NCBI GenBank assembly: GCA_030059665.1
Contig: JANVYR010000002.1
Location: 192,001-256,000, forward strand
Origin: Candidatus Calditenuis fumarioli
Lineage (GTDB): Archaea; Thermoproteota; Nitrososphaeria_A; Caldarchaeales; Calditenuaceae
Length of the DNA stretch: 64,000 bases
Reading direction: 5' to 3'
Part shown: piece by piece, positions 7-22,105 of the stretch
Layout: every line of letters starts with the position of its first letter
How positions within the stretch are numbered: the stretch's first letter is position 1
Notes under the pieces: model-generated
What the model was told of the DNA's origin: nothing
Database searches by the model: none
What the model saw: the letters and a program-made list of their open reading frames with translations, nothing else
Made by a program: the position numbers and the translations under genes

Positions 7-1092
7 TCACGCAGATCGGTTGATCTGGTCCAGCAACCTCTTCAGCAGCTTGATCTCGTCGCTTATCTGGCCCAGCAGGTCCACGGCCTTGTTCGTCCGG
101 ACCTCCATCGCGTCGAGCAGCGCCTTCTCGACCCGCTGACCCCGCGACCTTATCCCCCTGATCGCGTCCAGCTGCTCCCTGAGCTGCGCTATCCCGGCCT
201 CGATCACCCTCAGGTAACCTTCCAGGTCGCCACCGGAACCAACGCCGAACTTCCGCAGCAACTCGTTGTAGAGGTACTCGTACTCCTCCTTCGAGATCTC
301 GCCCAGGTTAAGCCTGGTCCTGAGGAGCTCTATCTCCACCTCGACGAACGGTGGCAGCGTCACGGCCTCGTCCTGCTGGAAGTACTTGCCCAGGGCCTGA
401 ACGATCTCATCCAGGCGCTCCGTGACCTCGGCCTTCGTGGCCTCGAGTTGCTTCGGATCTAGGTCGCCGATGGTGGTCCGTAGGAAGTCCTCCTCCAACC
501 GCTCGCGGAGGTGCCTGAGACCGCTCAGCATCTCAGACCAGATGCCTCCCCCTCCACCCTCTATCTGATCGATCGTCGCCTCTATCTCCTGAAGCCCCCT
601 CACCACCTCGTTCACGAGCTTCTGGTCCTGCTCCTTTGATGAGGTTAGGTTCAGCAGCGAGGTCACCAGCTGAGACCTCCTCCTGATGAGCCCGCCGAGG
701 ATTATCGGGGACGGAGGAAGGTCGTTAAGGTTCACGGACTCGAGGCCGAGGGCGAGCTCGACAGCGGCCCTCCTGAGGCTTTCGTACTCGGTCTCGGTCA
801 TCCTCCCGGCGAGGAACCTGAAATCGATGGTCCTGATCAGCTGGATGAGCTTGGACCTCAGCGCCGGGTCGTTCGGGACGGACGCGATCGATATCAGTCC
901 CGTTGCCTGGAGGTTCAGAAGCCGCTCGATGACGCGCTCCTCAGTGGTTTGCAGGCTCGCGGCCAGATCGGACACGTTCACGCTGACCCTCCCCGACCTC
1001 CTCGGCAATTCGGCCAGGTAGCGCACCAGCGCCATGTCCTCGGCTGTGAGGTGCAACTCCCACGCACTTGGCTTGCCATGGTTATTAAGCAT
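7..1092 (-). CDS. Helical/coiled-coil protein with putative N-terminal winged-HTH and repeated SHOCT/CdvA-like motifs
   Basis: 361-aa ORF, host-like codon usage. N-terminal VSDLAASLQTTEERVIERLLNLQATGLI resembles a wHTH. Motifs FRFLAGRMTETEYESLR and LRTRLNLGEISKEEYEYL. Confidence 0.6.
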   Translation of the reverse strand: MLNNHGKPSAWELHLTAEDMALVRYLAELPRRSGRVSVNVSDLAASLQTTEERVIERLLNLQATGLISIASVPNDPALRSKLIQLIRTIDFRFLAGRMTETEYESLRRAAVELALGLESVNLNDLPPSPIILGGLIRRRSQLVTSLLNLTSSKEQDQKLVNEVVRGLQEIEATIDQIEGGGGGIWSEMLSGLRHLRERLEEDFLRTTIGDLDPKQLEATKAEVTERLDEIVQALGKYFQQDEAVTLPPFVEVEIELLRTRLNLGEISKEEYEYLYNELLRKFGVGSGGDLEGYLRVIEAGIAQLREQLDAIRGIRSRGQRVEKALLDAMEVRTNKAVDLLGQISDEIKLLKRLLDQINRSA

Positions 1093-1230
1093 TGAACCAA
1101 GGGAGACGGAGCGGGTTTTCCGGTCGCATCGAGCCGGCCATCGCCAACCCGCGTTGTTCTAAGCGGTTGACGCCCTTTGGAACGACTTATTAACAGGCTT
1201 TTGCCTCTTCTGAGTTCGAGGTAGGACGTT

Positions 1231-2049
1231 GTGATCATAACCGTGAACGAGCTGACCACGAGAAGGAGCGTGAAGCTAGAGGTCGAGCCGGGACACACCG
1301 TGCGTGTGGTGGTCGAGGAGGTTATGAAGGCCCTCAAGATACCGCCGACAACGACGTACCGGCTCGTGCTCGGCGGCAAGGAGATCGGCCCTGAGCTCTT
1401 CGACAAGACGCTCGGCGAGCTGGGCATCTCGGACGGCGCCATCATGGACCTGGTACCGAGGCCGGTGGGTGGAGCGATGCTGCCGCAGGACAAGCTGCTG
1501 AAGAGGCTCGAGCGGGAGGAGCAGGAGATGAGGCAGCAGGGGTACGAGTTCGTCCGGGAGGAGGTCTGGAGGCAGATGAGCTTCCCGATGGTTTACAGCG
1601 CCGGGCTCGAGACCCTCGACGTAGCGCTGAGGTACGTCGTCACCTTTCAGGCACGCGGTTTCGTGCTGACCAAGAAGGGCGTGGAGGAGCAGCTCACCCA
1701 CACCGCCAGCATCTACGTGCTCCGGTACTACCCATACCCCGATCCGAAGCACGGTGCGCCGATGAGGATCTTCTGGGAGAGCAACATCTTCCATCCGAAC
1801 ATCTGCCCCGGGCCCAGATACGGCGGAAACGGGCTCGTCTGCTGGAAGATGATCAGGGAGTGGGGGAAGAACTTCTCGCTGTCGACGCTGGTGAGGGGCC
1901 TCCAGCTTCTCGTTGAGAACCCGAACCCCGAGGACCCGCTCAGCAAGATCCCCATCTGCATGCAAGCGACCGCCTTCTTCAAGGAGAACCCGCACCTCAT
2001 GGGATCCATGCAGGCTCCTGCCGGGGGCAGGCCGCGCGTCGTCGAATAG
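1231..2049 (+). CDS. Ubiquitin-like protein (aa 1-81, ends RPVGG) fused to a ubiquitin-conjugating E2 (UBC) domain
   Basis: Beta-grasp-like N-terminus ending Gly80-Gly81. E2 hallmarks follow: KRLEREE helix, YYP..P, IFHPNI (188-190), GLVC204, LQLLVENPNPEDPL. GAGGT RBS upstream of the GTG start. Confidence 0.9.
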   Translation: MIITVNELTTRRSVKLEVEPGHTVRVVVEEVMKALKIPPTTTYRLVLGGKEIGPELFDKTLGELGISDGAIMDLVPRPVGGAMLPQDKLLKRLEREEQEMRQQGYEFVREEVWRQMSFPMVYSAGLETLDVALRYVVTFQARGFVLTKKGVEEQLTHTASIYVLRYYPYPDPKHGAPMRIFWESNIFHPNICPGPRYGGNGLVCWKMIREWGKNFSLSTLVRGLQLLVENPNPEDPLSKIPICMQATAFFKENPHLMGSMQAPAGGRPRVVE

Positions 2050-2059
2050 CACGCCGATC

Positions 2060-2530
2060 ATGTGCGCCGAAGAGAGGCCGGTTTACCCAGTTTACATCGA
2101 CCTAGAGGTTTTGCTGGACGTGACGAAGCACGCACTGGAGGAGCTGCCGCGTGAGGTGATTGGGTTTCTGCTGGGGAGGGCCTACACGTGGAACGGCGAG
2201 ACGTATGTCCACGTGACCGGTTCGATAAGAGGTCGGTCCATCGCCTCCGAGACCTCAGTCGCCTTCGCTCCCGATTCACTGGCCGAGGTGGCCGAGTCTC
2301 TCAGGCGAGATCATCCCGACAAGGAGATCGTCGGATGGTACCACTCGCACCCGGGATACGGATGCTTTCTGTCACCGACCGACATAACGTCGCACAAATC
2401 TTGCTTCGCGATGCCGCATCACGTCGCGCTGGTGGTGGATCCGGTGAGGAAGGAGGCAGCCTTCTTTCGCGTCTCGGAGGGATTCGGCTACGAGGGCGTG
2501 AGGTCGGCCATCGTGAGGAGGCGGGTGTGA
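2060..2530 (+). CDS. JAB/MPN+ (JAMM) metallo-isopeptidase, Rpn11-like
   Basis: REVIGFLLG glutamate plus IVGWYHSHPGYGCFLSPTD, close to the Rpn11 motif. ATG at 2060 lies inside track ORF 1913..2530. Confidence 0.92.
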   Translation: MCAEERPVYPVYIDLEVLLDVTKHALEELPREVIGFLLGRAYTWNGETYVHVTGSIRGRSIASETSVAFAPDSLAEVAESLRRDHPDKEIVGWYHSHPGYGCFLSPTDITSHKSCFAMPHHVALVVDPVRKEAAFFRVSEGFGYEGVRSAIVRRRV

Positions 2531-2531
2531 A

Positions 2532-2705
2532 ATGGTCAGGGTGTTGGACGTCACGGAGCCGCAGCCCGAGCAGAGGCCTCCCCCTGACATAACGGACGAG
2601 TACGAGGTGATATCGCGCGATGAGGAGGGAGACGGTTACGACATCTCGGAGATCGTGGACATGTTGAAAGGCATGGAAAGCGGCGAGGGGGACGCTCAGC
2701 CCTGA
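2532..2705 (+). CDS. Small acidic protein, 57 aa (not in ORF track)
   Basis: Hand translation MVRVLDVTEPQPEQRPPPDITDEYEVISRDEEGDGYDISEIVDMLKGMESGEGDAQP. Starts 1 nt after the JAB stop. Confidence 0.65.
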   Translation: MVRVLDVTEPQPEQRPPPDITDEYEVISRDEEGDGYDISEIVDMLKGMESGEGDAQP

Positions 2706-3430
2706 ATCCTCTCCAGAACCTCCCTTCTCAGCACCGCTTCGCTCTCCTCGATCGCCCTCATGACGCTCTGGACCCTCGAGGCCGGCTTGATGCCGCCCAG
2801 CGCGCGCTTTGATAACTCGATCTCCTGTTGCATCAGCAAAGCCACCTCCAGTATTATGTCCGAGAGGCCGGTCGAACCGCCCTCGTATTCCCTCATGAGG
2901 ATGGCTAGGTCGTCACCGACGTACGAGGAGAGCCAGATCCACCTGTCCAGACCCTCATAGGCTCTCCTGGCGTTCTGCAGGTCCTCGATCTCCAGCTGCG
3001 CTAGCCTCAGAAGGTGAAGCCCCTCCTCCTTCTTGCCCAGCTGGTGTAGTATGCCGGCGGCAGCTGCGAGCCTCAGCAGCAACTTCAGCGATGCGCCCGC
3101 CTCCACGACGTTCCTCGGCATCCTCTTGCTCAGGAGACGGTACGACATGTCGGCGGCGCTCAAGGTGAGCAGGAATTCCGCCGCCAGGCGATTCAGTTCC
3201 TCCAACACCTCCTCGTTTCCCGACTTTTCAGCCGCAACGCGGTTCAGCACCAGCGAGAGTGACGTCCTGAGCTGTTCCAGCCTCGAGACCTTCTCCAGCA
3301 GGCTGCCGAGCGACGCCTCACCGAGTAAGGGCGAATCGAAGACCTGAAGGACTACGGGGGGACGCAGGCTGTACTCCGCGACGCTCACGACCCTAGGGTT
3401 TTTCCCCCGCCTCCTGCCTCTCCTGACCAT
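2696..3430 (-). CDS. Hypothetical all-helical protein
   Basis: 244-aa ORF with host-like codons. AT-rich TATA-like stretch upstream at about 3450-3458. Confidence 0.6.
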   Translation of the reverse strand: MVRRGRRRGKNPRVVSVAEYSLRPPVVLQVFDSPLLGEASLGSLLEKVSRLEQLRTSLSLVLNRVAAEKSGNEEVLEELNRLAAEFLLTLSAADMSYRLLSKRMPRNVVEAGASLKLLLRLAAAAGILHQLGKKEEGLHLLRLAQLEIEDLQNARRAYEGLDRWIWLSSYVGDDLAILMREYEGGSTGLSDIILEVALLMQQEIELSKRALGGIKPASRVQSVMRAIEESEAVLRREVLERIQG

Positions 3431-3813
3431 TTGATTGCTTATTATGGTGATAATATATAGGTCTTTTCAAGGACGGGGTTTCCGGTCACGGAGTGGGTGT
3501 TGCTGGCGCTTTCGTCGTCCTCCTGTGACGGACCGCATCGAGCCTTTCCTGTTATCCTCCGGTGCATGCCGCTTTGGTCGAAACTCCGTTCCGCAGCGAT
3601 CACCGACCATCGCGAGGACTCCTATCAGACACCCGGGTTACGCTCGAAACGGCCGAAGCCATACCGGGCGAGGTGCGGCGTTCTGACAGCCTCTAACGCC
3701 ACTCCTTTCTCTCTACTGTTTGTATCACAGTAGAACTCAACGGGCCGGAGACTCCTCGCACGTCAGTTGGCCGGGCTCGGACGTCTCTAGTCCCGCTCGA
3801 TTAGCGTCCGGAA

Positions 3814-3825: not shown

Positions 3826-3850
3826 TGGATGGCATCAATCATCAAGCCCC

Positions 3851-5704
3851 GTGGCAACATTTAACAGTCAGCACATTTGTGTACCATCAATGGGTAAGGG
3901 CGATTCCTCCGATAAATCTAGGCGCATCGTTCCGATAAAATTCAAGCGCTGGGATGTGCCCCCGAACGTTGAGGTCTTCGACCGGTACAAGTCCGCGATG
4001 AGCGAGATCGTCATCGGCAGGGAACCCGGCTCACCGGTTCTGAAGTACTTCGTCCAGGACCCGCCGGTGAGCGAAAAGGAGCTCGAGCAGCTGGGCGAGC
4101 TGGCGGGTGAGCTGATCTACACCGCTCGCGGGCAGCAGGACTTCACCCGGGAGAAGTTCGAGGAAGTGCTGAAGAAGCGTAACTTGTACAACCCGATCCT
4201 GATGCACTACATCGAGAGGGAGCTTTGGGGATACGGCCCGCTCACCGCGGTAATGGCGGATCCTAAGATAGAGAACGTGGAGTGCAACAAGGCCGACTCA
4301 CCGGTGACCGTGACCCACACGGATTACGGGAGGATCGAGACCAACATGGCCTTCGCTGCGGACGAGCTCGACCGGCTGGTGATGCGGCTTGCCCATCTGG
4401 CGGGAAAGAGCGTGTCGGTGTTCAAGCCCTTCCTGGACGGCGTAACCATTCCCGGTGGTCACAGGTACACCTGCACCTACCGGACCGAGATATCGTCCAG
4501 CAGCACCTTCGCCATCAGGAAGTTCCCGGAGAAGCCCTGGACGATCGGAAAGCTGCTGTTGAACGAAACCATAACGCCGGAGATGGCTGCGTGGATCTGG
4601 CTGATGATCGAGACGAGGCAGGCGATACTCGTGGCAGGGGTGATGGGATCGGGCAAGACTTCGCTGATAAACGCCTTGGCCTCATTCACGCCTCCTCACA
4701 TGAAGATCGGGACCGCGGAGGACGTGCCGGAGTTCAGGCTGCCCCACACGTACTGGCTGAGGTACGTGATCAGGGAGGCGCAGACGATAGAGGGGACAGG
4801 GGCTGTGACGATCTTCGATTTGCTCAAGCTGCTCCTGAGGAGCAACGTGGACTACATCATGGTCAACGAGATCAGGGGAGAGGACGCCAAGGTCTGGATG
4901 CAGGCCGTTGCCACCGGACACGGAGGCGTCACGAGCATCCACGCGGAGGACCCGGACACGGTGTTCGCCAGGCTGGAACAGCTCGGCATACCGACCGCCC
5001 ACCTTTCGGCGCTGAGGGGAATAGCCTTCATTGGCTTCATCTTCCAGGACATCGGCAAGGGTTACTTCAAGCGGATCAGGAAGGTTAAGGAGTTCTTCGA
5101 GGTGAAGATCGACGAGTCCGGCAGGGAGGTCCGCAGGCTTTTCTGGTACGAGACAGGACCCAACGGAGGTCCCAGGTCGCTCAGCCTCGAGGAGCTGCTC
5201 GAGAGCAACTCCGCCCAGCTGATGATGCAGTACCTCGGCCTCTCGAAGGAGAGGCTGGCGGAGGAGTACAGGACGAGGGTCGACTTCCTCAGGTGGGTCG
5301 CTGGCATGTCACGGGCTAACCCGGAGGTGGCCGAGATGGATAGCATCAAGCAGCTGATGGCAAACTTCTACCTCGACAAGAACTTCTTCAGGTCGATACC
5401 GGTTCCAGCGCCGGCGAGGCCGAAGGAGCAGGAGAAGGCCGAGGTGCGGCCCGTCAAGCCTAAGGTGACCATACCGGTAGCCGTCAGGGAGGCGACGGCG
5501 AAGGAGCAGAAGGAGGGGGAGCAGAAGGAGGCGAAGGAGGTCGAGGCGAAGAGGCTCGGCGACGTGAGACTGGTGGGAATGGGCGACATGGTCCTGAGAC
5601 CGCCGCGCGTGGTGAAGAAGGGCAAGATGAAGTCTCAGGAGGAGAAAGAGAGGAAGGTGATGGGCGCACTGGCGTCCAAGCTCCGCAGGTCGGGTGAGGG
5701 GTGA
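3851..5704 (+). CDS. Type IV pilus/T2SS assembly ATPase (VirB11/TadA/FlaI family) with Lys/Glu-rich C-terminal tail
   Basis: Walker A GVMGSGKTS, Asp box EDVPE, Walker B YIMVNEIRG, His box TGHGGVTSIHAE. Alternative start ATG 3890. Confidence 0.93.
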   Translation: MATFNSQHICVPSMGKGDSSDKSRRIVPIKFKRWDVPPNVEVFDRYKSAMSEIVIGREPGSPVLKYFVQDPPVSEKELEQLGELAGELIYTARGQQDFTREKFEEVLKKRNLYNPILMHYIERELWGYGPLTAVMADPKIENVECNKADSPVTVTHTDYGRIETNMAFAADELDRLVMRLAHLAGKSVSVFKPFLDGVTIPGGHRYTCTYRTEISSSSTFAIRKFPEKPWTIGKLLLNETITPEMAAWIWLMIETRQAILVAGVMGSGKTSLINALASFTPPHMKIGTAEDVPEFRLPHTYWLRYVIREAQTIEGTGAVTIFDLLKLLLRSNVDYIMVNEIRGEDAKVWMQAVATGHGGVTSIHAEDPDTVFARLEQLGIPTAHLSALRGIAFIGFIFQDIGKGYFKRIRKVKEFFEVKIDESGREVRRLFWYETGPNGGPRSLSLEELLESNSAQLMMQYLGLSKERLAEEYRTRVDFLRWVAGMSRANPEVAEMDSIKQLMANFYLDKNFFRSIPVPAPARPKEQEKAEVRPVKPKVTIPVAVREATAKEQKEGEQKEAKEVEAKRLGDVRLVGMGDMVLRPPRVVKKGKMKSQEEKERKVMGALASKLRRSGEG

Positions 5705-7368
5705 TGGCGTCGATCACAGAAGCGCTGGAGCGCTCCCTGGCCAACTACATCTACCTGAGCGGGATACCCACCACGCCCCGCGATTACATCCGAAGGGTGT
5801 TCAATCTGCTCGTCGCTTCGGCCGTCGTGACCGCTGTGGTAACGTACCTCGCCCTGGCGGTGGCACGCGTTCCTGCCATGCTGATAGTGGGCGTCATGCC
5901 GTTGGCCTACTCCCTGTACCTCCTCTTCAGACCGATGGTCAAGGCCAGGTCGTTCGAGTCCCAGTGCATGCGCGAGCTGCCGTACGTTGCGGCGTTCATG
6001 ACGTCGTACGCCGCGGTCGGGATACCGCCCCACAGGTCAATGGCCTCCGTCTCCCTGAAGGAGCGGATATTCCCTGCGTTCGCGAGGCTGGTGAAGCGGA
6101 TGGAGGCGGTACGCATGATCACGGTGAAGGACCCCCTGGAGACGATAGAGGAGGAGGCGGACAAGATCAGCAGCCTGCCGCTGAAGGACTTCCTCCAGTC
6201 CGCGGTCGGAGCGGAGAGGGGAGGCGGCGGGATGTACAACGTATTGAAGGACAAGATGCGCAGCCTGTTCAACGAGCTGAAGGAGAGGTACAAGGCGCTC
6301 GGGGATCAGTTGAAGCTCTTCGGGGACCTGCTGCTGGTCTTCTTCGGCGTGCTGCCGCTGCTCCTCTACACGATGCTCACCGTCTTCGCGAGCGACATGG
6401 CCATCACGACCTCCAGGCTCTTCACGTTCATGGTGACGCCGTTGCTGGTGGTGACGCTGGCCGTGATGATAGACACCGGATATCCCTCTACGCCGCAGTC
6501 CTTTAACAGGTACTACGTCAGGGCGCTCATGCTGGGCCTTCCGATCGGCGCGGCTGTGGCCTCGGTCTTCTACCTCTCACCGGTCCTCGTTGAGACGCTG
6601 CTGGGCGCTAGGTTCGTCCAGTACAAGCTCGCCATCTCGCTGGGTGCGGGCCTGGTTGCGTTCTCGCTGGTCGCGACCTGGGTCTTTTACAGAGACTACA
6701 AGTTCATGAACGACGTGGACTACGCTCTCCCAAGCTTCGTGAGGGACCTGACCGAGGAGGTGAAGAAGGGGAAGAGCCCGACGCAGGCGACCATCTACCT
6801 CTCGGAGGTCCGAAGCTACAACAGAGCGTTCAACTTCGTCCTTCAGCAGATCGCCGCCCAGCTCAGGGTCGGGAGGAGCCTGAGGGAGGCCCTGGAGCCC
6901 TTCAGGGGGAAGGTCTCCTGGAGGTCCGAGCTGATACTGGACCTCGTGGCCGACGCGGAGGAGCTGGGAGCCCAGAAGGAGATCTTCGAGGAGGTGACCG
7001 AGATAAGCAGGGAGACGCGTGACGCGATCAGGGTCGCCAAGGCCAAGACGACCGGCATCAAGTACTTCGGGTTCATGGTGGCGCTGCTGATGATCTTCAT
7101 CGCCTCGCTACTGATCAAGCAGATCATCGTCCCGCTGGCGAACATGGCCGTAACCGTGCCCCAGAGCATCGGTCTCGGCAACATAAGGCTCCTCAGGCCC
7201 GAGCAGCTTCCGGAGCTGATCGACACCATCTCGGCCGGGATCGTCCTGAACGCGACGTTCCTCGGCGTGCTGACGGGGAAGATGAGCGACGGCATAACTG
7301 CGGCCGGGTTCCTCTACGCCTTCGTCTACACGCTGGCGGCGCTGGTGGCCATGGTGTTCCTCTTCTGA
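5701..7368 (+). CDS. Type IV pilus membrane platform protein (TadC/FlaJ/GspF family)
   Basis: Two T2SSF-like repeats (ELPYVAAFM...; LPSFVRDLTEEVKKG) with multiple TM helices. Overlaps the ATPase stop. Confidence 0.9.
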   Translation: MMASITEALERSLANYIYLSGIPTTPRDYIRRVFNLLVASAVVTAVVTYLALAVARVPAMLIVGVMPLAYSLYLLFRPMVKARSFESQCMRELPYVAAFMTSYAAVGIPPHRSMASVSLKERIFPAFARLVKRMEAVRMITVKDPLETIEEEADKISSLPLKDFLQSAVGAERGGGGMYNVLKDKMRSLFNELKERYKALGDQLKLFGDLLLVFFGVLPLLLYTMLTVFASDMAITTSRLFTFMVTPLLVVTLAVMIDTGYPSTPQSFNRYYVRALMLGLPIGAAVASVFYLSPVLVETLLGARFVQYKLAISLGAGLVAFSLVATWVFYRDYKFMNDVDYALPSFVRDLTEEVKKGKSPTQATIYLSEVRSYNRAFNFVLQQIAAQLRVGRSLREALEPFRGKVSWRSELILDLVADAEELGAQKEIFEEVTEISRETRDAIRVAKAKTTGIKYFGFMVALLMIFIASLLIKQIIVPLANMAVTVPQSIGLGNIRLLRPEQLPELIDTISAGIVLNATFLGVLTGKMSDGITAAGFLYAFVYTLAALVAMVFLF

Positions 7369-8931: not shown

Positions 8932-9512
8932 TGAGGGACAGCAATTACCCCTCTGCTCTCAGCGCCAAAACCTTAGCGAGGTCATCCGTGAAGAGCGTGG
9001 GACAGGCCTCCGTCACCTTCGTCGTCCTCGTGGTGCTGCTGGGACTGATAGGCACCGCCTTCTACATGGCAAACCAGTACATGGGGATCTTCGAGCCGTC
9101 GGTCTGGGACGCGGTCGAGGCGTTCAACAGGGCCGTCCAGAGGGTCTACGGTCTGCCCGAGAGGTCGGCCACCATATCGATCTACATTCCCTCCCACGCG
9201 TCGCTGAAAATATCCAGGTCGGGCTCAGGCGACGGCCTAGTCCTGGAAGCGACCGGCGCCTTCGGCGACAGGAGGTACCGGCTGATCGAGCAGGACGGAT
9301 GGGAGCTGATAAACGAGGGCTCCACCACGCTCTCCACCGACGGCCGGCTCAGGGTCGTCTACGGATCGCAGGATAGGCCCCTGAGGCTGGGCTCGGTCGA
9401 TCTCACCCTCGGCCCCGGAAGGCACACGCTCGTGATCAGGAACCTGAACGGCGTCACCGTGGCTGTCCAGCCCGTTCCCCACGGGATCCCCACGGAGGTG
9501 ATGAGCAGGTGA
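8931..9512 (+). CDS. Minor pilin-like protein (class III signal peptide)
   Basis: KSVG|QASVTFVVLVVLLGLIG. Coupled to the upstream stop; the true start may be the internal GTG (MKSVGQ). Confidence 0.75.
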   Translation: MRDSNYPSALSAKTLARSSVKSVGQASVTFVVLVVLLGLIGTAFYMANQYMGIFEPSVWDAVEAFNRAVQRVYGLPERSATISIYIPSHASLKISRSGSGDGLVLEATGAFGDRRYRLIEQDGWELINEGSTTLSTDGRLRVVYGSQDRPLRLGSVDLTLGPGRHTLVIRNLNGVTVAVQPVPHGIPTEVMSR

Positions 9513-13971: not shown

Positions 13972-14793
13972 TTGAGGCGTAGCGAATCCGGTCTGAGCGT
14001 GGCCGTACAGACTGCAGCGATGATAGTGATAACTGTGGCCATAGCAGGGGCCATCGTAGCCCTGTGGAGGCCATGGGAAACGGGAAGTCAGGTCCAAGCC
14101 GGAGACATATCCTACGTCATGCAGAACGTCCATGAGGCTGTCCTCAGGCGAGAGGGTTCGGTCCAGCCACATTTCTCGCTCACGGTTTACCCGCTCAAGG
14201 AGACCCACAAAGTGGAAATCGAATGGAACGGCAATAGAATGCCTGTTATGGTGTCAGTAAGCACTATAGAATATCATGGCGACAAGATGAGACTCCCAGG
14301 CGTGTACTTCCTCGACAAGGGGAGCGTCGACGTTCTCGGGACCTACATCGCGGACAGGAAAAGGAACTACACGGTCAATGGGGTGGATACGGTATCCTAT
14401 GTCGAGTACGATGAAAAGGGGATGAAATACGTCGTCAAGGCCCTGCCATACGTTAACGTGGCCGTTGACAGAGTGTACCACGACGTTGTCGTTAACGTCA
14501 TGATAAGGTTCGTGGTGCTCGCGCCCTATCCGCTGAACGCGATGGAGTTCCCAGACTCGGTTAAGCGAGGATACACCATCGGAGCGGGGCAGATGATCAC
14601 CCTCAGGATGAACAACACCTACAGGTTCTACATGCAGCAGCCCGAGTCGGTGGGCGGAGGGACCCTCAGGCTCTACTTCGATGGCGAGCCAATCCTCAAC
14701 GCGCAGAACGAGGCCCTGGAGGTCAGGACTACAGAGCACACCATAGTGAGGGTGTTCGTGGACATGGTCGTGCTGAACGTATGGGGGAGGTAG
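13972..14793 (+). CDS. Minor pilin-like protein (class III signal peptide)
   Basis: MRRSESG|LSVAVQTAAMIVITVAIAGAIV. GGAGG RBS upstream of TTG. Confidence 0.75.
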   Translation: MRRSESGLSVAVQTAAMIVITVAIAGAIVALWRPWETGSQVQAGDISYVMQNVHEAVLRREGSVQPHFSLTVYPLKETHKVEIEWNGNRMPVMVSVSTIEYHGDKMRLPGVYFLDKGSVDVLGTYIADRKRNYTVNGVDTVSYVEYDEKGMKYVVKALPYVNVAVDRVYHDVVVNVMIRFVVLAPYPLNAMEFPDSVKRGYTIGAGQMITLRMNNTYRFYMQQPESVGGGTLRLYFDGEPILNAQNEALEVRTTEHTIVRVFVDMVVLNVWGR

Positions 14794-14794
14794 C

Positions 14795-15271
14795 TTGGCC
14801 TCGACCTACGTATACATCGTCACGATAGGCGTTCTGATGCTGATCGGCATGACTTCCGCATACCTCCTCATGCAGCAGGTCGGATCGATGACGTACGTCG
14901 GCCAGAGGAACGCCCTCGCGGTAGCGGCCTCGCACGTCCTTTCGGGGATGTGGAGCGCGGTGGAGGAGGCCAAACTCGTTCCCGGCGGGGGAGTGGAGTA
15001 CAAGGCCGTCTCGGTGGGGTTCTCGTTCAGGGCTGAGGTGGGGAACAGCCCGAGGACGGGCCAGCTCTCCCTCTGCGTCACGGCGTTCGGCATCGCCTAT
15101 GAGAGGCCTCTCCCCACCATTCCCGGTGTCACGTACAGGCCCTCGGGTTCGGGAGGTGAGGTGGTTACGATCAGGGCCTCCGTATCGGAAGGGTCGATCG
15201 AAATAACGCTTGGAAACATGGACCAGAACAGTCAGTTCACAGAGGGCCAGCCAACGGAATGCTTCAAATGA
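14795..15271 (+). CDS. Pilin-like protein with N-terminal hydrophobic helix
   Basis: MASTYVYIVTIGVLMLIGMTSAYLL. Coupled to the previous gene; no charged leader visible. Confidence 0.6.
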   Translation: MASTYVYIVTIGVLMLIGMTSAYLLMQQVGSMTYVGQRNALAVAASHVLSGMWSAVEEAKLVPGGGVEYKAVSVGFSFRAEVGNSPRTGQLSLCVTAFGIAYERPLPTIPGVTYRPSGSGGEVVTIRASVSEGSIEITLGNMDQNSQFTEGQPTECFK

Positions 15272-16746
15272 ACAGGACGCGCTGTTTTCTGCTTCTGCTG
15301 TCGTTGCTTATTTTGCAGCATATTGTCTATTCAACTGCGAACGCTTTAGAAGAGTCCCCCAACAACGGCCATGGGGTCAACTACGATTACCTGATCGAGT
15401 TCGGCCGGGACTGTGTGGCCGAGGTCAGGGTCCTGGTGAGGACATGGGACAGCGAGGCCAGGGCATGGATGCTCCTCCCGAGGCTCGAGAAGGGTTTCTC
15501 CACCAACGCGTCGTTGACAAAGGTGGAGGGTGCTAACCTGGAAGGCAGGAGGCTGGCGCTTTACGTGAACGTTTCGTTCCACCTTCCTCGTGGGACTACG
15601 GCCGCATTCAACTACTCGTTACCCCACGTCTGTCTGGTCCACCGCGGAAAGGCCGTCTTCCTCTCGCCGTTGATGGTGTTCTCACCCGGAGGCAGCGGAA
15701 CGGTATCCGTTAACGTGAACTGGCCCGGGTCGTCCTTCGCAGGAGCCGATGCCGCGCTCTCATCTGTCAGGAGATCGGATGACGGGTTCGGCGTCACCAG
15801 GAGGCTGCCGCTGCTGTCGGGAAGGCTCTCGTTCGTCTTCTCGGTCCCAGAAGAGGAGCTGAGGGAATACGTGAACTGCTCCCTGACGTTCGTCCTGCCC
15901 GAGAGGTACAGCTGGATCGCCGAGAGGTTGATGGCGTTCAATTCGAAGGTGGACGGGAAGCTCGCGGAGCTTTTCCAGCGAAAACCCTCGAGGTTGACGG
16001 TTTCGTTCTTCCTGCCCGACAGATACGACGAGGGGCCAGAGGGGTTCGTAACTCCGCCGAACGGCGACAGCACAGGAAGGATCTCGCTCAACCTCTACCT
16101 GTTGAGGATGGTCGACGGCATGCTCGAGGTCACCTTCCTCCACGAGCTCATCCACCAGTACCTCTTCGCGAACGGCGTCGGGGCCGGCGCCACCTGGCTC
16201 CACGAGGGTCTAGCGACCTACCTCTCGGTGAGGCTGGCGATGGGTACGGGGCTGGAGGCACCCGCGTACGTCCGTGAGCTGTTCGACTGGGAAAACGCGA
16301 GCCTTCAGGAACTCCGAGGCCTTCTCGGCTGGAGGCCGGGTGAGGAGAGGGGCAGGAGGTGGTACGCGATGGCCTACAGGGCCGTGGAGCTGCTCTTCTC
16401 GGCCGACAGCGACGGGATGAGGAAGGCCGTTTCCTCGCTCGGGGACGCAACGGTGAGGACGCCGGAGGACGCCGCGGTGCACGTCTTCGATCACCTCAAC
16501 GCAGAGGGGAGGAGTTTAATGATTGAGATGGGGCTGGTGAGCGCACAGGATCTCGCTCAGGAGATCGGCTCCGAGCCCATGACACCACGTAACGAGACGC
16601 CCGGGAGCGCTGTGATGAACGGCACCGCGCAGACGGTTCAGGGCATCCCACAAACCGTTACGCACGAGCACCTCGTTCTCGTGTTAGCGACCGTCCTGAC
16701 CGTATCGGTGATAGCGCTGATCCTGATCGACGTCAGGCGGACTTAG
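15259..16746 (+). CDS. Secreted, C-terminally anchored gluzincin-type metallopeptidase
   Basis: Signal peptide. FLHELIHQY followed by WLHEGLATY (HEXXH...E). C-terminal TM LVLVLATVLTVSVIALIL. Confidence 0.85.
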   Translation: MLQMNRTRCFLLLLSLLILQHIVYSTANALEESPNNGHGVNYDYLIEFGRDCVAEVRVLVRTWDSEARAWMLLPRLEKGFSTNASLTKVEGANLEGRRLALYVNVSFHLPRGTTAAFNYSLPHVCLVHRGKAVFLSPLMVFSPGGSGTVSVNVNWPGSSFAGADAALSSVRRSDDGFGVTRRLPLLSGRLSFVFSVPEEELREYVNCSLTFVLPERYSWIAERLMAFNSKVDGKLAELFQRKPSRLTVSFFLPDRYDEGPEGFVTPPNGDSTGRISLNLYLLRMVDGMLEVTFLHELIHQYLFANGVGAGATWLHEGLATYLSVRLAMGTGLEAPAYVRELFDWENASLQELRGLLGWRPGEERGRRWYAMAYRAVELLFSADSDGMRKAVSSLGDATVRTPEDAAVHVFDHLNAEGRSLMIEMGLVSAQDLAQEIGSEPMTPRNETPGSAVMNGTAQTVQGIPQTVTHEHLVLVLATVLTVSVIALILIDVRRT

Positions 16747-17576
16747 CCCTGCTCCTCGATCTTCGTGGTGTCGTATCCGAGCTCCTTCAGCCTCGTCACG
16801 TACTCCGATCTCAGCCTCTCGTACACCTCCTTCTTGACGCGACCGTCCTTGTACGCCAGCTCGAGGCTCGAGAGGAAGTTAAGGTATCTCGTGACCATGA
16901 CGTTCCGGCCCTCATCGATGACCTCCTTGGAAACCGCCTCGCCGCCAACCCTCGCCTCAACCCCTGCGGTCCCCTCCTCGACCTCAGCAGCTCCTTCATG
17001 GGGCTCAGTCACGGGGACGTATGTGGCCCTCTCCCACGTCGCACGCACCTTCATGCGTAGGACCTGGAAGCCCTCGCTCGGCCGCGTGAGGATCAGCTTC
17101 AACGTGAACGGAGATATCCTGCCCGACCACATCAACAGGCCGAGGAGTACCAGTGACGTGGAACCGATCGCAGCGATCGGGTAGTAGCCGGGAAGGAAAA
17201 CATATGCCGCAGAGACGGCCGCGATCATCGCTGCCAGCGTCGCGATCGTCTTCCGGTCGAGCGTGAGGTTCACGATGCCCCTGCTTGCCAGAAAGGTCGT
17301 CACCAGCAGCGCGATCACCAGACCTGCGACCCCTGCGGCCACGAAGGAGATCGCCGTGAAGAACAACGCGAAGACCGTGTAGAAGATCAGAACGTCAGGT
17401 CCCTTAGCGAGCGAGACGAAGGCGGCCAGTATCGCCACCTCGATGACGATCAAGACCAGCCCCAGGACACCGCCGATCGTATAGGCAGCACCGACCGCGG
17501 TCAAGAGGAAGGAGACCATGGCTATGTCCGACCTCAGTGCGTTCTTGATCCTCGCTCCTCCCGTGATCTCCGCCAT
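16743..17576 (-). CDS. Multi-pass membrane protein with C-terminal SHOCT/CdvA-like helix
   Basis: About 5-6 TM segments, then LELAYKDGRVKKEVYERLRSEY. Likely start MAEITGG at 17576 (track ORF begins at 17651). Confidence 0.7.
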   Translation of the reverse strand: MAEITGGARIKNALRSDIAMVSFLLTAVGAAYTIGGVLGLVLIVIEVAILAAFVSLAKGPDVLIFYTVFALFFTAISFVAAGVAGLVIALLVTTFLASRGIVNLTLDRKTIATLAAMIAAVSAAYVFLPGYYPIAAIGSTSLVLLGLLMWSGRISPFTLKLILTRPSEGFQVLRMKVRATWERATYVPVTEPHEGAAEVEEGTAGVEARVGGEAVSKEVIDEGRNVMVTRYLNFLSSLELAYKDGRVKKEVYERLRSEYVTRLKELGYDTTKIEEQG

Positions 17577-17738
17577 CGAATGCGAAAGAACTCGCCAAAA
17601 TAAAATTCTTTTTCTGAAAACAGTCCAAATCTGCCCATGCGGACAGCTCATCCCTCTCGTATGAGCGTCGAGGATCGAACCGTCCGTGGCGGGCGCAACA
17701 GGGGAACGTTTTTGAAGGGCTCAGGGGCATGAGGTTCG

Positions 17739-18425
17739 ATGGAGGGAGCGGTCAGAATAGCAGCGTCGGCCGTGATCGCCTTCATTGCGGCACTGGGGCT
17801 CGTCATCGCTTTCCCGGGGATCGTTCCCGGAACGATGAGGGTGACCACTGTTCAGGTTCCCGTGGTGGTAACGCAGACGCTCAGGGTGAACGTCACCCAT
17901 ACCGCCTTCCAGACCGTCCTGAAGGACACCGCAGGACCTGTGTGGGAGCTGGTCTTCGTCGAGTTGCCCCGCGAGCCACGAGAAGGCTCGATAACGGTGT
18001 ACAACGCGACGCTCGGCCTCGGACGCAGCGGTATAGCGGCGGCCATCGTGGTCAAGGCCCCTGACGGATACCAGTTCGCGCCGACGGTGAACGGGTTCGT
18101 GTTCAGGCTTGAGACCAACCTACCGGTAAAGGCTCTGGTGCTGTACTCCGACGTCTCGGTCCCCGTTGTGCCGGGGCTCGACAGGAGCAACTACAGGACG
18201 ATGCTCGCCGAGAAGGCCTTCTCGCCCACCGCGCTCCTGCCGTACCAGAACCCGAGGAGGGCCGACGCTTCACCGGGCGCCTTCACGCTCCAGCGCGAGC
18301 GGGGCAACTTCCAGCCGTATTCGTGGCTCGCGATCTGGCCGCTTTCGGTCTACTTCCACGGCATCGAGGGCCACGAGACGAAGGTGCGGGTCGTGCTGAC
18401 CTACAGCCTGGTGGAGGCGAGGTGA
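17739..18425 (+). CDS. Membrane-anchored/secreted beta-rich hypothetical protein
   Basis: N-terminal hydrophobic helix IAASAVIAFIAALGLVIAF, then a Val/Thr-rich stalk. Confidence 0.7.
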   Translation: MEGAVRIAASAVIAFIAALGLVIAFPGIVPGTMRVTTVQVPVVVTQTLRVNVTHTAFQTVLKDTAGPVWELVFVELPREPREGSITVYNATLGLGRSGIAAAIVVKAPDGYQFAPTVNGFVFRLETNLPVKALVLYSDVSVPVVPGLDRSNYRTMLAEKAFSPTALLPYQNPRRADASPGAFTLQRERGNFQPYSWLAIWPLSVYFHGIEGHETKVRVVLTYSLVEAR

Positions 18426-18426
18426 G

Positions 18427-19278
18427 GTGTCAATGTCATCCGGCACAGGTCTGAGGGGGCTCCCCGTCCTGCAGGTCTACAGGATGGACGACGACGTCTA
18501 CGAGAGGCAGCGTCGTATCTGGAACCAGGACAGAATAGGCGCGATGCGGGTCCTGGTGGGAGGTGCGGGCGCGCTCGGGAACGAGATCGTCAAGAACCTC
18601 GTTCAGATCGGGGTCAAGCGCGTTTACGTAATCGACTTCGACCGTGTGGTCGCGTCCAACCTTAACAGGTGCCTCTTCTTCCGGAGGAGCGATGCCCTCA
18701 GGAGGAGCAAAAAGGTGGAGGTGCTCGCGAGAAGGGCGAGTCAGATCAACAGCGACGTCGAGGTGGTCCCGATCCACGGCGACATCAGGGACCTGAGTGA
18801 CGACGTCATCAGGGACGTGGACATCGCGCTAGGTGCCTTCGACAACTTCCACGCAAGGCTGGTCCTGAACCTGCGGTGCTACGAGAGGCAGGTCCCCCTC
18901 ATCGACGGTGGCATCGAGGGACTGCTCGGGACGGTGCAGGTGGTGGTGCCTCCCTTCACGCCCTGCATCGAGTGCGGCATCACCGACATGGACCTCCAGC
19001 ACCTTTGGGAGAGGTTCTCGTGCGGCGGCGAGGCCACCGGGCTGGAGGGGCCGAAAATCCCGTACGTTCCGATGACGGGGGCGGTCGTCGCAGGCATTCA
19101 GGTCGCCGAGTGCGTCAAGGTCCACCTCGGGCTGGAGCGCTTCAAACGGGAGGGGAACTGGAGCGACAGCGTTGGCGAGCCCATGGCGGGCAAATCCCTG
19201 CTGATAGACCTCAGAACGGGTTCGTTCTACGCGTATGACCTCCAGCGGAGGAGCGACTGCAACGTCTGCTCTCTTTGA
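18427..19278 (+). CDS. Ubiquitin-activating E1-like enzyme (ThiF/UBA family)
   Basis: YERQ, VLVGGAGALGNE, DFDRVVASNLNR, Zn pairs CIEC and CNVC, candidate catalytic Cys in RFSCG. Confidence 0.92.
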   Translation: MSMSSGTGLRGLPVLQVYRMDDDVYERQRRIWNQDRIGAMRVLVGGAGALGNEIVKNLVQIGVKRVYVIDFDRVVASNLNRCLFFRRSDALRRSKKVEVLARRASQINSDVEVVPIHGDIRDLSDDVIRDVDIALGAFDNFHARLVLNLRCYERQVPLIDGGIEGLLGTVQVVVPPFTPCIECGITDMDLQHLWERFSCGGEATGLEGPKIPYVPMTGAVVAGIQVAECVKVHLGLERFKREGNWSDSVGEPMAGKSLLIDLRTGSFYAYDLQRRSDCNVCSL

Positions 19279-19317
19279 ACGGAGTAAGGTTATATGATCC
19301 AGTAAGGCACCACAATC

Positions 19318-21576
19318 ATGGGAAGAGACCCGCAAAGCACGAGCGAGATCGTTGCACGGAGCGTTCCGATCTTCCTCCTCCTGGTCCTCCTATTGACGCA
19401 GTCGGCACAGGTTCTGGTGGCGCACGCTCAACAGGACTCGTCACCTCCCATCAGTTTGCCGCTCAGGGCACCGCTTCCGGTGAACGTGATCACCGTTGGA
19501 CTCAGGCCGGAGGTGCTGGGGCTGAGGACGATGGCGGAGCTTCAGCAGATACTCAGCACGCACGTCAGGTCAAAGGCCGCTTCCTACGTCGGCTTCAGCC
19601 TCGACGACCCGATCCTGATCGCCGAGTTCGACGTCCATCTCCAAGTTCTGGAGGCCCCCCAGCGGTTCGTGGCCGAGTTCGCCAACGATTTGTCCTTGGT
19701 CACATATGATCCGGCGAGGCTCCCGCTGGAGGCCAAGCAGGAGAACCAGAGGTACAGGGACTTCGTCAGGTCGGCTTACGGCGGCACCGTGGCTGGCAGC
19801 CTGACGTTCACCCTGACCGACATGGAGGCTGTCGTTCAGCTCATGGCCTACTACACCGAGAAGTACATACCCGCGGTCCTGAACGACTACAACGTCTACC
19901 TCCTCTGCGGTAACTCTTTCTTCGATGGAAAGGTCCCGGTGTACTTCACGGTGGGCTACACGCCAGAGAGGCAGGTGCCCAACGCGGTGGTGGGCCTCAA
20001 CCTGTACGGAGGCATGTGGACCGGCCGGCACGTGGTGATCGACGTCTGCGCGGTGCCTAACCCTTACGGCAACTTCGCGCCGAAGGGCCAGCAAGAGGTC
20101 CTCGAGTACCTGCCGGTATGGGTCTCCAACGACCCTGAATTCAGGATCGGGATGGTGGTGAAGTACGTGGACGAGGTCATCGACAACCTCTTCGTCAAGT
20201 CCCTGCTCTACCTGCCCCGGTATCAGGTGACCTACCTCTTCGACGTCGTGGTGATCGACCTGACCACCTCCGGTGGAGGGCCCTCCTTCTTGGTGAACAA
20301 CTTCTCCCCTGAGCTCTTCGAGTACGCCATGAGGCAGCTGGCGCCCTACAACTACTACACGAGCAGGTACAGCTACTACCACATAAGCGATGTGCCGCAG
20401 ATGAGGCAGGTCATCCGCTCCTCTAGGGGATACCAGGTAATAGACGTGGAAGCGGCGCTCGACACAGCCCAGCGTCTCGGGATAATCAAGGAGACCGTGA
20501 AGGGTGTCGCTTACACGCCGATACTGATCTTCGTCTCGGACTCGGACATTTTCCCTGATGCGCCAGGCGTGCTCGGCATAGCATGGGCTGACAGGGAGGA
20601 CCCCAGATATCCACGGGGGGTGGTGGTCGGGGCCGTGTTCAGCGCAATTCAGCGCGAGGGCCTCACGTTCACCGTCATCCACGAGGCAGGGCACACGCTT
20701 GGGCTGGCACACCCGTTCCAGGACCTCGACGAGTCGCAGATGGCCCCCGGCAGGTCCGGAAACCTCAGGCCGACGTTCGTGAACAGGTGGATCTACGCCT
20801 ACGTCGACTCCGCGATGACCTACGCTAATGTGCTTCAGGTCACCGATTACCGGGACCTCTTCACATACAAGTACCCGATGAGGACCTTCTTCAGCACCTT
20901 CGACCTGGACGCGCTGGACAGGACCACGATCTCCCTCCTGCTGTACTACTACCTGCTCTACAGACAGGAGGCTCTTGCGGAGCTCAACAAGCTCAACAGG
21001 CCGCTTGAGGCCTTCGAGAAGGGGAAGGAGCTTCTAAAGCTGGCTGACCAGGCCGCCGTCGATGCGGTCAGGCTATTCGAGCAGCATATGTACTTCGATC
21101 GGCTGGAGTTCGAGGGACTGGGATCGCAGCTGGTCTCCTCGTTCGATCACGCCTGGCTCGCATACGTCTCGGCTTACACCCTGTACAACCTGATCGTGGG
21201 CGTTCAGGACGCAGCGGCCTTTTACGAGCCCCAGATCGAGGAGCTGCAGCGCACGGTTGCGAATCTGAACGGCAGGATCAACGATCTGAGCTCCCAGCTC
21301 GAGGACTCGAGGAGGCAGACGGAGCAGCTGAGGACGGCGCTGGAATCGGAACGCCAGCAGAGGAATGCCATCCAGGCGGAGCTTGACCGGACGAAGGGCG
21401 AGCTGCAGCGGGCACAGCAGGATCTCGCGGCGAAGGAGAGGGAACTCTCCGACGCCAACGCCAGGGCAACGACCTACCTCTACGGCATGGTGGGGGTCGC
21501 CGTCGGCGCAGCGGTCGCGGTCGCGTCCGTGGTCGTCCTCAGCAGCAGGAGAAGGCCGAAACCGACGGTAGCCTGA
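19318..21576 (+). CDS. Secreted metzincin metallopeptidase with C-terminal coiled coil and TM anchor
   Basis: Signal peptide (AHA|QQ). HEAGHTLGLAH (HEXXHXXGXXH), Met-turn SAMTY, heptad coil, terminal TM. Confidence 0.88.
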   Translation: MGRDPQSTSEIVARSVPIFLLLVLLLTQSAQVLVAHAQQDSSPPISLPLRAPLPVNVITVGLRPEVLGLRTMAELQQILSTHVRSKAASYVGFSLDDPILIAEFDVHLQVLEAPQRFVAEFANDLSLVTYDPARLPLEAKQENQRYRDFVRSAYGGTVAGSLTFTLTDMEAVVQLMAYYTEKYIPAVLNDYNVYLLCGNSFFDGKVPVYFTVGYTPERQVPNAVVGLNLYGGMWTGRHVVIDVCAVPNPYGNFAPKGQQEVLEYLPVWVSNDPEFRIGMVVKYVDEVIDNLFVKSLLYLPRYQVTYLFDVVVIDLTTSGGGPSFLVNNFSPELFEYAMRQLAPYNYYTSRYSYYHISDVPQMRQVIRSSRGYQVIDVEAALDTAQRLGIIKETVKGVAYTPILIFVSDSDIFPDAPGVLGIAWADREDPRYPRGVVVGAVFSAIQREGLTFTVIHEAGHTLGLAHPFQDLDESQMAPGRSGNLRPTFVNRWIYAYVDSAMTYANVLQVTDYRDLFTYKYPMRTFFSTFDLDALDRTTISLLLYYYLLYRQEALAELNKLNRPLEAFEKGKELLKLADQAAVDAVRLFEQHMYFDRLEFEGLGSQLVSSFDHAWLAYVSAYTLYNLIVGVQDAAAFYEPQIEELQRTVANLNGRINDLSSQLEDSRRQTEQLRTALESERQQRNAIQAELDRTKGELQRAQQDLAAKERELSDANARATTYLYGMVGVAVGAAVAVASVVVLSSRRRPKPTVA

Positions 21577-21685
21577 GAGCGATACTAACCTGCTTCTATT
21601 CTTTTTGCAGTGTTGGTCGGTGTTGCTGCGATCGGCCCGAATTTTTCGTATATGTTTAATTATTGGACAATTGAAATGAGTTCGC

Positions 21686-22105
21686 ATGGGGAAGGGAAGC
21701 AGAAGGAACGAAGGGCTGAGCGAGGCCGTGACGACGATTCTGCTCGTCGTGATCGGGATAGCGATGGCGTTGATGATATGGCAGTTCTTTACGCCGCGAC
21801 CCTCTGAGGAGCTCAGGATAGGGCCCATAGACGTCTCCGGCGGGACGGTCATCTTCACCGCCCAGAACGTGGGCAGCGTGGACGCCGAGATCGTCGGCGT
21901 GGCCTGCTATCCGCCGGGGAGCGCACCGCCTTCGACCGGGGGCGCAGTAACGCCGCTCGGCGGTGCGGACACAAAGCTGCAGCAGGGCGAGTCGAGCAGT
22001 TTCTCGGGCAGCTGTGCGGGTTCCGAGCCTGGCAAACCGATCAACGTGCTGGTCTTCACGAAGAACAAGGCCTACGGACCGTTCACGGTCATAGTCAGGA
22101 GCTGA
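21686..22105 (+). CDS. Archaeal type IV pilin (probable major pilin)
   Basis: Canonical class III signal RRNEG|LSEAVTTILLVVIGIAMALMIW, 139 aa, preceded by an AT-rich promoter-like tract. Confidence 0.9.
   Translation: MGKGSRRNEGLSEAVTTILLVVIGIAMALMIWQFFTPRPSEELRIGPIDVSGGTVIFTAQNVGSVDAEIVGVACYPPGSAPPSTGGAVTPLGGADTKLQQGESSSFSGSCAGSEPGKPINVLVFTKNKAYGPFTVIVRS

Follow-up and report, generated by a model that had tools for sequence, protein, structure and literature searches.

The eukaryote-like ubiquitin (Ub) systems of archaea have, to our knowledge, no known natural substrates or roles, and only the enzymology of the Caldiarchaeum-type operon has been reconstituted. Among other prokaryotic systems, the sampylation pathway of Haloferax (SAMP/UbaA) needs no E2 or E3. 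The Caldiarchaeum-type operon comprises genes for Ub, E2, E1, a small RING protein and Rpn11 (Nunoura 2011 PMC3082918; Hennell James 2017 PMC5654768; Fuchs 2018 PMC6043591). Archaeal type IV pili (T4P), as a separate subject, have been surveyed in a census from which the words ubiquitin, ThiF and JAB are absent (Makarova 2016, PMC4858521). The locus described here has parts of both kinds. It takes up the first 22,105 nt (1-22105) of a 64,000-nt stretch of the genome of Candidatus Calditenuis fumarioli (contig C2:192001-256000; the window) and encodes a fusion of a ubiquitin-like protein (Ubl) with an E2, a JAB peptidase, a FlaI-type ATPase, a FlaJ/T2SSF platform, pilin-like proteins, large surface proteins and a ThiF-type E1. 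These parts are of known kinds, a eukaryote-like archaeal Ub cascade and an archaeal T4P; their combination is new. The locus is probably a composite system, in which a T4P-like surface apparatus would have its own eukaryote-like Ub-type module and a dedicated coupling on its cytoplasmic faces; the probability that we would attach to this reading is approximately 0.56, only a little better than even. Full-text searches for a link between Ub and pili found none and, as a preliminary description of this DNA had supposed, the searchable literature describes no coupling of the two; a paper reporting a highly transcribed pilus system in Calditenuis mentions ubiquitin only as background (Beam et al., PMC4681859).

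Coordinates are window positions throughout, with negative numbers for positions upstream of the window start on contig C2. The host genome measures 1.57 Mb and is 91% complete; its closest public relatives are metagenome-assembled genomes (MAGs) named Candidatus Calditenuaceae or Caldarchaeales, formerly Aigarchaeota. The preliminary description, which was made from the sequence alone, had already called the Ubl-E2, JAB, pilus ATPase, platform, E1 and pilin genes, and all of them are present at or near the places that it gave.

The Ubl-E2 gene (1231-2049, plus strand) encodes a 272-residue protein. Its Ubl part (1231-1473) ends with RPVGG at residue 81 and runs in frame into a UBC-type E2 (1474-2049). 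The E2 part is recognized by Pfam UQ_con (3.4e-07; 30.4 bits, cut-off 27) and residues 9-75 of the Ubl part by the Rad60-SLD and ubiquitin families, under their gathering scores. Because trypsin is generally known to cleave Arg-Pro bonds poorly, the diGly proteomics suggested in the preliminary description would be expected to overlook conjugates of a Ubl with this end. RP[VIPQ]GG is kept in 12 members of the family, stand-alone Ubls end at GG or at GG plus one or two residues, and FHPNI and a cysteine at the catalytic position are invariant in 10 aligned E2 sequences. The fusion is free of stop codons in four genomes and in locus L045. In two other loci (L047 and L066) the Ubl gene has a stop codon of its own, after which the E2 continues in the frame of the Ubl, so that the fusion in Calditenuaceae looks like the outcome of a stop loss. 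It is rare, with only 12 relatives among 5.8 billion proteins, nine of the 12 at least 60% identical. The JAB/MPN metallopeptidase gene (2060-2530, plus strand; Pfam JAB 5e-16, 59 bits, cut-off 22.5; Prok-JAB 4e-10) truly starts at the ATG at 2060, 10 nt past the E2 stop, and retains an intact JAMM motif (HSHPx6SxxD and the upstream glutamate). JAB follows E2 in most of the related loci examined, and its product is a candidate for both the processing enzyme of Ubl-E2 and the deconjugase. The E1 (18427-19278, plus strand; 283 aa; ThiF 5e-46, 157 bits) has two CxxC motifs and is short: canonical archaeal E1 has an insertion, a separate Cys domain, that is missing here. An alignment of eight relatives with a canonical 394-residue E1 shows a crossover-loop cysteine conserved in all of the short E1s, at the place where the canonical enzyme has its long insertion.

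With the Caldiarchaeum-type operon this module shares a GG-ended beta-grasp Ubl, a UBC-fold E2 (HPN, Cys), a ThiF-type E1, a JAB/Rpn11-type peptidase of a kind able to process Ubl precursors, and a small RING-like protein. It differs in its short E1, in the fusion of Ubl to E2, in the addition of a winged helix-turn-helix (wHTH)/helical protein and SHOCT-tailed membrane proteins, to which we return below, and in the scattering of its genes through a pilus locus, the Caldiarchaeum-type operon being compact. The host has a canonical system as well, at C1:98500-101500, where genes for Ub (78 aa, ending VGG), E2 (167 aa) and E1 (394 aa) form a compact operon and are followed by two small genes without family matches. 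Since that operon is separate, the cascade of the window is a second and divergent one (identity to the canonical enzymes is 31% for the E2 and 41% for the E1), and the host carries two separate ubiquitin-type systems. The nearest kin of the window's E1 (44-52% identity) are found in compact archaeal operons for Ubl, E2, JAB, E1, a small Prok-RING protein and a protein of 354-370 residues.

Likeness to sampylation extends to the ThiF-type E1, the GG-ended beta-grasp modifier and a JAB desampylase (the NCBIfam desampylase family matches the window JAB at 1e-09). The E1 of the window, however, reaches 72 bits with the UbaA model, for which the cut-off is 450, its Ubl is ubiquitin-like and not ThiS/MoaD-like, and an E2 and a RING-like protein are present; by its composition, the module is not a sampylation system.

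The bacterial comparison brings in an explanation on which the preliminary description had already touched, that the cascade defends a pilus serving as a virus receptor, either by tagging viral proteins in the manner of Bil or by shutting the pilus down on infection. Like Bil/Bub and the Cap2-Cap3 pair of the cyclic oligonucleotide-based antiphage signalling system (CBASS), the locus encodes a prokaryotic Ubl, E1, E2 and JAB deconjugase, and bacterial operons of that composition are generally known to be mostly antiviral. It is also accessory, being absent from one genome of the same genus and from the rest of the class, and its surface proteins evolve fast (24-50% identity within the genus). 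Yet the E2, eukaryote-like and of the UBC/HPN type, is accompanied by a RING-like protein, unlike Bil or Cap2; PADLOC gives no match for this E2, and for the E1 a match to BilD at only 2e-04 and to Cap2-type proteins only through the generic ThiF core. PADLOC found nothing among the accessory proteins, and the loci examined showed no effector, nuclease or CD-NTase and no gene for defence of another kind. With an archaeal host and a pilus context in place of a defence island, these differences set the module apart by sequence from Bil and Cap2, and we hold an antiviral function to be very improbable.

The pilus genes begin with those for the ATPase and the platform. The ATPase (3851-5704, plus strand) is of the FlaI/BasE type, with a Lys/Glu-rich C-terminal tail; T2SSE matches it at 2e-23 (83 bits, cut-off 24.9), and the NCBIfam families BasE (9e-65) and FlaI (3e-64) match it at ~218 bits each, both under their equivalog cut-offs. 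The polytopic FlaJ/TadC-type platform (5701-7368, plus strand) is matched by T2SSF in two stretches (2.4e-11; 44 bits, cut-off 25.2) and has nine hydrophobic segments. N-termini of the pilin type (a basic stretch, a glycine and a hydrophobic helix) were found in six to eight proteins of the locus, by inspection only. The plus-strand genes so marked encode proteins of 518 residues (7375-8931; class-III-like N-terminus and a middle of low GC content), 193 residues (8931-9512; kept in relatives and L045), 273 residues (13972-14793) and 158 residues (14795-15271), together with the candidate major pilin of 139 residues (21686-22105; class-III-type N-terminus). The last is the best conserved protein of the locus (80-85% identity within the genus). 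A further one, of 228 residues (17739-18425, plus strand), is either pilin-like or a membrane-anchored beta-sandwich protein: its AlphaFold2 model has an N-terminal helix and a beta-sandwich (predicted local distance difference test score, pLDDT, 69), and a fold search with that model returned only generic jelly-roll beta-sandwiches (TM-score ~0.3), which speaks neither for nor against a pilin fold. As a candidate prepilin peptidase, a Peptidase_A24 gene lies elsewhere in the genome (C2:294141-294479; 40.7 bits, over the cut-off). The pairing of a FlaI-type ATPase with a neighbouring FlaJ-type platform, the several class-III-type pilin-like genes, the associated cytoplasmic coiled-coil and Zn-ribbon proteins and the large surface proteins are all features of archaeal T4P such as Aap, Ups, the bindosome and Epd. 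What sets this locus apart from them is the interleaving of E1, Ubl-E2, JAB and RING genes, and a platform that forms a subfamily of its own, so far found only in Ub-linked loci.

The interleaving is close. E1 lies inside the pilus string and starts (18427) 1 nt after the stop of the preceding gene (18425), as had been noted in the preliminary description. Two of that description's other placements need qualifying. Ubl-E2 and JAB do lie upstream of the ATPase, but a minus-strand gene (2696-3430) intervenes between JAB and ATPase; and the two genes named as Zn-peptidases, with HExxH at 15259-16746 and HExxHxxGxxH at 19318-21576, do flank E1, but they are marked as such by motifs and sub-threshold Pfam matches, and two genes lie between the first of them and E1.

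When 185,579 species genomes were searched with an alignment of E2 sequences, 80 loci emerged; among these (as judged with home-made profiles) pilus genes adjoin the E2 only in four Calditenuaceae loci and in MAGs of the Desulfurococcales. Within the Calditenuaceae, four species (~78% E2 identity) share one order, in which a pilin-like gene (like that at 17739-18425), E1, the orthologue of the 139-residue pilin, Ubl-E2 and JAB follow one another contiguously, and then comes the minus-strand gene for a 244-residue protein, directly downstream of two pilin-like genes; RING, two wHTH genes, ATPase, T2SSF and the rest of the pilus string come next. In the window and in its closest relative locus (L070), E1 is inside the pilus string; in L045 (65% identity) Ubl-E2-JAB abuts an inverted pilus string, a third order; and L179 has a fourth. 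The linkage has thus outlasted at least four gene orders in this family. Metagenome contigs at 90-92% identity have E2 and JAB beside the ATPase, and the platform orthologues, 74-92% identical within the genus, are confined to Ub-linked loci. One genome of the same genus (G026, 84% complete) is without E2, E1 and T2SSF orthologues together. The closest species (G022, T2SSF 92% identical) shows no Ubl-E2 or E1 orthologue, but with a genome 66% complete and a contig of 4.4 kb this does not amount to absence. Beyond the genus, the canonical E2 is the only one present in the other Caldarchaeales genomes that were surveyed, and their T2SSFs are paralogous (at most 28% identity).

The Desulfurococcales loci repeat the association with other arrangements. 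A Desulfurococcaceae genome (contig G078:C8) has an operon of ATPase, T2SSF and five pilin genes that is no more than 5 kb from RING-E1-pilin-like and no more than 11 kb from Ubl-E2-JAB; its ATPase is 40-42%, and its T2SSF 37-39%, identical to those of the window, and the 139-residue pilin is 29% identical to the pilin beside its ATPase. This locus and two metagenome contigs (L185 and L188) share the order wHTH protein (like that of 7-1092), RING, E1, pilin-like, 982-residue surface protein, major pilin, ATPase, T2SSF and five pilin-like genes. A search with the window T2SSF gives 370 bits for G078:C8 and at most 152 for any of the order's other 324 genomes; the E2 family is found in only four of the 325. 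In L082 and L083, T2SSF is divergently placed from a tight operon of six pilin-like genes that ends in E1-Ubl-E2-JAB; L082 continues with genes for a 950-residue surface protein with apolipoprotein repeats, a wHTH protein and a RING protein, and has a pilin and a FlaI-type ATPase 9 kb further on. A pilin-like gene abuts E1 in all five of these loci (L082, L083, G078:C8, L185, L188), as it does in the window. In the reverse direction, 17 contigs were retrieved from metagenomes with the T2SSF subfamily. All seven of the Calditenuaceae-like contigs with enough flank carry E2 and JAB, and all three of the G078-like contigs that reach far enough carry Ub-module genes, the G078-like contigs ranging in GC content from 0.38 to 0.58, which implies several taxa. 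Four contigs (L183, L184, L186 and L187) end before the expected position of E1 and were counted neither way; none of those long enough has an orthologous pilus locus that lacks Ub genes. Because the linkage of Ub and pilus genes is conserved across gene orders and in two archaeal orders, it is more than chance.

Transcription of the locus could be followed in strand-specific raw reads from a single hot-spring metatranscriptome (771 reads, of which 431 are at least 99% alike). Sense-strand reads cover Ubl-E2, JAB, ATPase, T2SSF, the tail protein gene 16743-17651, the pilin-like gene 17739-18425, E1 and the metzincin-like gene. Reads over the plus-strand genes all have one orientation, and those over the minus-strand gene 16743-17651 have the opposite one. 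The depth is ~5-11x for most genes of the locus and 1-5x for E1, and coverage is low over 2696-3430. The Ub module and the pilus module are both transcribed in situ. Over 7870-8536, the low-GC middle of the 518-residue pilin-like gene, there are no reads at 92% likeness or better, although reads cover the sequence on either side; the segment is variable, or else the sampled strain has a different sequence there.

A number of points weigh against a composite system. The globular domains of pilins are extracellular, out of reach of an ATP-dependent cytoplasmic cascade, so that few parts of a pilus are accessible to it. Six loci (L047, L049, L051, L066, L068 and L094) have the same Ub family, with E1s 44-47% identical, RING and wHTH protein, and no ATPase or T2SSF within ~10 kb; the Ub module is therefore not obligatorily linked to pili. 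The T2SSFs of L082 and L083 are not clearly apart from Ub-free paralogues. All of the genomes are uncultured MAGs or metagenome contigs, and the RNA comes from a single sample and speaks for co-expression, not for co-regulation. The neighbourhood survey that the preliminary description had called for speaks, on balance, for a real coupling: orthologues of the pilus subfamily carry Ub genes wherever the contig is long enough, so that the pattern named there as a refutation does not hold for them, and it holds in part for the Ub module, six examples of which are without pilus genes and lie beside other membrane proteins.

The same six modules speak for the notion that there is no functional link at all, and that two accessory modules, shuffled within one variable island, have been inherited or transferred together. 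Each module is restricted to certain lineages, and horizontal transfer could carry the two together. Against such an account stand an interleaving that four or more rearrangements have not undone and that two orders share at ~40% protein identity, the position of E1 (1 nt behind a pilin-like gene, and in L082 and L083 at the end of a pilin-like operon) and the outcome of the reverse scan; it appears to us decidedly unlikely. The Ub-T4P coupling of the preliminary description thus survives as a linkage conserved in two archaeal orders and in several gene orders; the modifying, licensing or defensive role that it assigned to the cascade is a proposal.

If the two modules are joined in a composite system, the question becomes by what. 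Membrane and surface proteins encoded beside the non-pilus Ub modules have a SHOCT-like motif of ~40 residues in the cytoplasmic tail, often followed by a Zn ribbon. The minus-strand gene 16743-17651, inside the pilus string, encodes a 302-residue protein with four transmembrane segments and a match to this tail profile in its cytoplasmic C-terminus. A hidden Markov model (HMM) of the tail, built from six proteins beside other Ub modules with the 16743-17651 product left out, found that product as its sole match among the 20,183 open reading frames (ORFs) of the host genome (E 4.7e-08; next 0.56). The motif has eight matches in 172 kb of family loci that were not used for building, and none in 1.02 Mb of E2 loci from Asgard archaea, Thermoplasmata and Micrarchaeota. 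The 16743-17651 protein would, by this pattern, be the likeliest physical bridge from the pilus string to the Ub module.

Two further partners lie at the upstream edge. The preliminary description recognized no RING E3, which is correct within the window, but a gene for a 99-residue Prok-RING-like protein (-1120 to -821) ends 0.8 kb upstream of it. Its match to Prok-RING_1 (E 1.7e-05; 25.1 bits) is under the cut-off of 29.1, and its eight ligand positions read C-x2-D...C-x2-C...H-x2-C...C-x2-C, with aspartate replacing the second cysteine. The gene is kept beside the module in relatives and in other Ub-module loci. Directly after it comes a plus-strand gene for a 280-residue wHTH-like/coiled-coil protein, which starts at -819 and whose 3' end reaches into the window (1-23); the pair is kept in four genomes of the same genus. 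Further upstream are two more pilin-like genes, one matching DUF7288 just under the cut-off. Overlooked in the preliminary description as a conserved member of the Ub module was the gene at 7-1092 (minus strand), for a cytoplasmic protein of 361 residues with a wHTH and helical hairpins (weak matches to HTH_Crp_2 and GvpG). It is homologous to the 354-370-residue proteins encoded beside RING and E1 in other archaeal Ub modules (E 4e-13 and 2e-08 in pairwise comparison with operon homologues, two of which match each other at 6e-29). Its AlphaFold2 model (pLDDT 79.5) has the wHTH and the hairpins, and a fold search with it found no match in the PDB at E of 0.001 or better, only designed helical repeats. 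A complex prediction for this protein with the tail of the 16743-17651 product (residues 185-302) scored 0.31 against a mark of 0.32, run without controls, and speaks neither for nor against binding.

The wHTH proteins suggest a different use of the same parts, a gene-regulatory switch. They (the product of 7-1092 and its paralogue, encoded by the gene ending at 23) would themselves be the substrates, held at the membrane by the SHOCT-like tail proteins until conjugation or removal of Ubl freed or destroyed them and so set the transcription of surface genes; the pilus would be regulated and not modified. A wHTH/MarR-like N-terminus is conserved in the family, the wHTH gene adjoins the RING gene in most of the family loci examined, and the wHTH proteins score weakly with the tail HMM (E about 1e-4). 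A general sensor-regulator role would also explain why the module occurs beside surface and membrane proteins with no pilus genes in the vicinity. The helix-turn-helix matches, on the other hand, are under the Pfam cut-offs, and a switch of this kind leaves the abutment of E1 on a pilin-like gene in every pilus-linked lineage unexplained. We think a gene switch unlikely, though well worth bearing in mind.

For the composite system preferred here, we infer every enzymatic step, the identity of the target and the physiological outcome as follows. JAB would cut the Ubl-E2 precursor after Gly81 of RPVGG, yielding a Ubl with a Gly-Gly end, and would also reverse conjugation. The short E1 would adenylate the Ubl and hand it over, by way of the loop cysteine, to the UBC-type E2. 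The Prok-RING protein and the wHTH/helical proteins (the product of 7-1092 and that of the gene ending at 23) would direct E2~Ubl to parts of the apparatus exposed to the cytoplasm, for which the SHOCT-like tail of the 16743-17651 protein is the best candidate as dock or substrate; other candidates are the Lys-rich ATPase tail and the platform loops. The outcome might be control of the assembly, activity or turnover of the appendage.

A wider proposal is that the module tags the cytoplasmic tails of membrane proteins, with the SHOCT-like tail as a dock or degron that is read by the wHTH/helical adaptor and the RING protein, so as to sort, extract or degrade surface components. We rate it a rather unlikely guess at present. 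If true, tail tagging would be an archaeal forerunner of Ub-dependent membrane-protein control in eukaryotes, and in this pilus subtype it would supply a turnover or disassembly function that is otherwise wanting; we know of no retraction ATPase in archaeal pili.

Interleaving with one defined machine offers something useful to the study of archaeal Ub systems, a short list of candidate substrates (the ATPase tail, the platform loops, the SHOCT-tail protein and the wHTH proteins) and a readout that can be assayed. Should the coupling be real, it would be the first Ub-type modification tied to a prokaryotic surface appendage, with consequences for the question of how, before eukaryotes, membrane proteins came under the control of ubiquitin. 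With the short E1 and the Ubl-E2 precursor, minimal Ub cascades are also seen to be more varied than was known.

The rest of the locus encodes surface proteins and one small cytoplasmic protein. The 1482-residue surface/membrane protein (9509-13957, plus strand) has helical repeats like those of apolipoprotein and Baculo_PEP_C, and the 950-residue protein after JAB in L082 gives the same weak Pfam matches. Four SPYLPFPPEI peptides at its C-terminus (13688-13942) appear to be strain- or species-specific; they were considered as a recognition motif akin to the PPxPPEY described below and rejected, being absent from the L038, L040 and L070 orthologues. The 495-residue putative Zn-peptidase (15259-16746, plus strand) is exported and C-terminally anchored, and is so called by its HExxH motif and topology only, with no Pfam match. 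The exported metzincin-like protein of 752 residues (19318-21576, plus strand) has HExxHxxGxxH, a coiled coil, a C-terminal anchor and sub-threshold matches to Reprolysin_3 and Met-zincin. For the helical cytoplasmic protein of 244 residues (2696-3430, minus strand) there was no family match and no usable lead in the Atlas; in four relatives its gene shares a strand with the two pilin-like genes upstream of it.

Several observations on related loci and on the surroundings may be recorded. In L070 (13936-15398) the pilin is followed by a second JAB (213 aa) and a 274-residue coiled-coil protein, where the window has pirin and Big_14. A metagenome contig (L065:2695-4221) has a pilin-like gene and then an E1 split into two ORFs (115 and 166 aa, 61% identical) among metabolic genes; no gene was called in the next 2 kb, and the locus is possibly a decayed remnant. 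A third, paralogous module is found in Calditenuaceae JGI OTU-1 (L043, on G022:C91), its proteins 31-41% identical to those of the window and its genes in the order membrane protein, Ubl (GG plus 17 residues), E1, E2, JAB, membrane protein; downstream, on the opposite strand, is a gene for a 351-residue coiled-coil protein with a C-terminal RING-like Cys/His cluster. Type II membrane proteins inside this module (L043:4414-5202) and two others (L047:10827-11975 and L066:10458-11567) share a cytoplasmic N-terminal PPxPPEY, which recalls the PPxY signals of eukaryotes and has no counterpart seen in the window. About 4.2 kb before the window (C2:187474-187776, minus strand) a ThiS/MoaD-family protein of 100 residues is encoded (Pfam ThiS 2e-13), next to a gene for a 966-residue surface protein with CarboxypepD_reg repeats; it ends with AIAGG and seven more residues and would therefore need C-terminal processing. 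The sole RNA gene detected in the window is that for tRNA-Pro(GGG), at 41491-41588, which at 98 nt presumably bears an intron.

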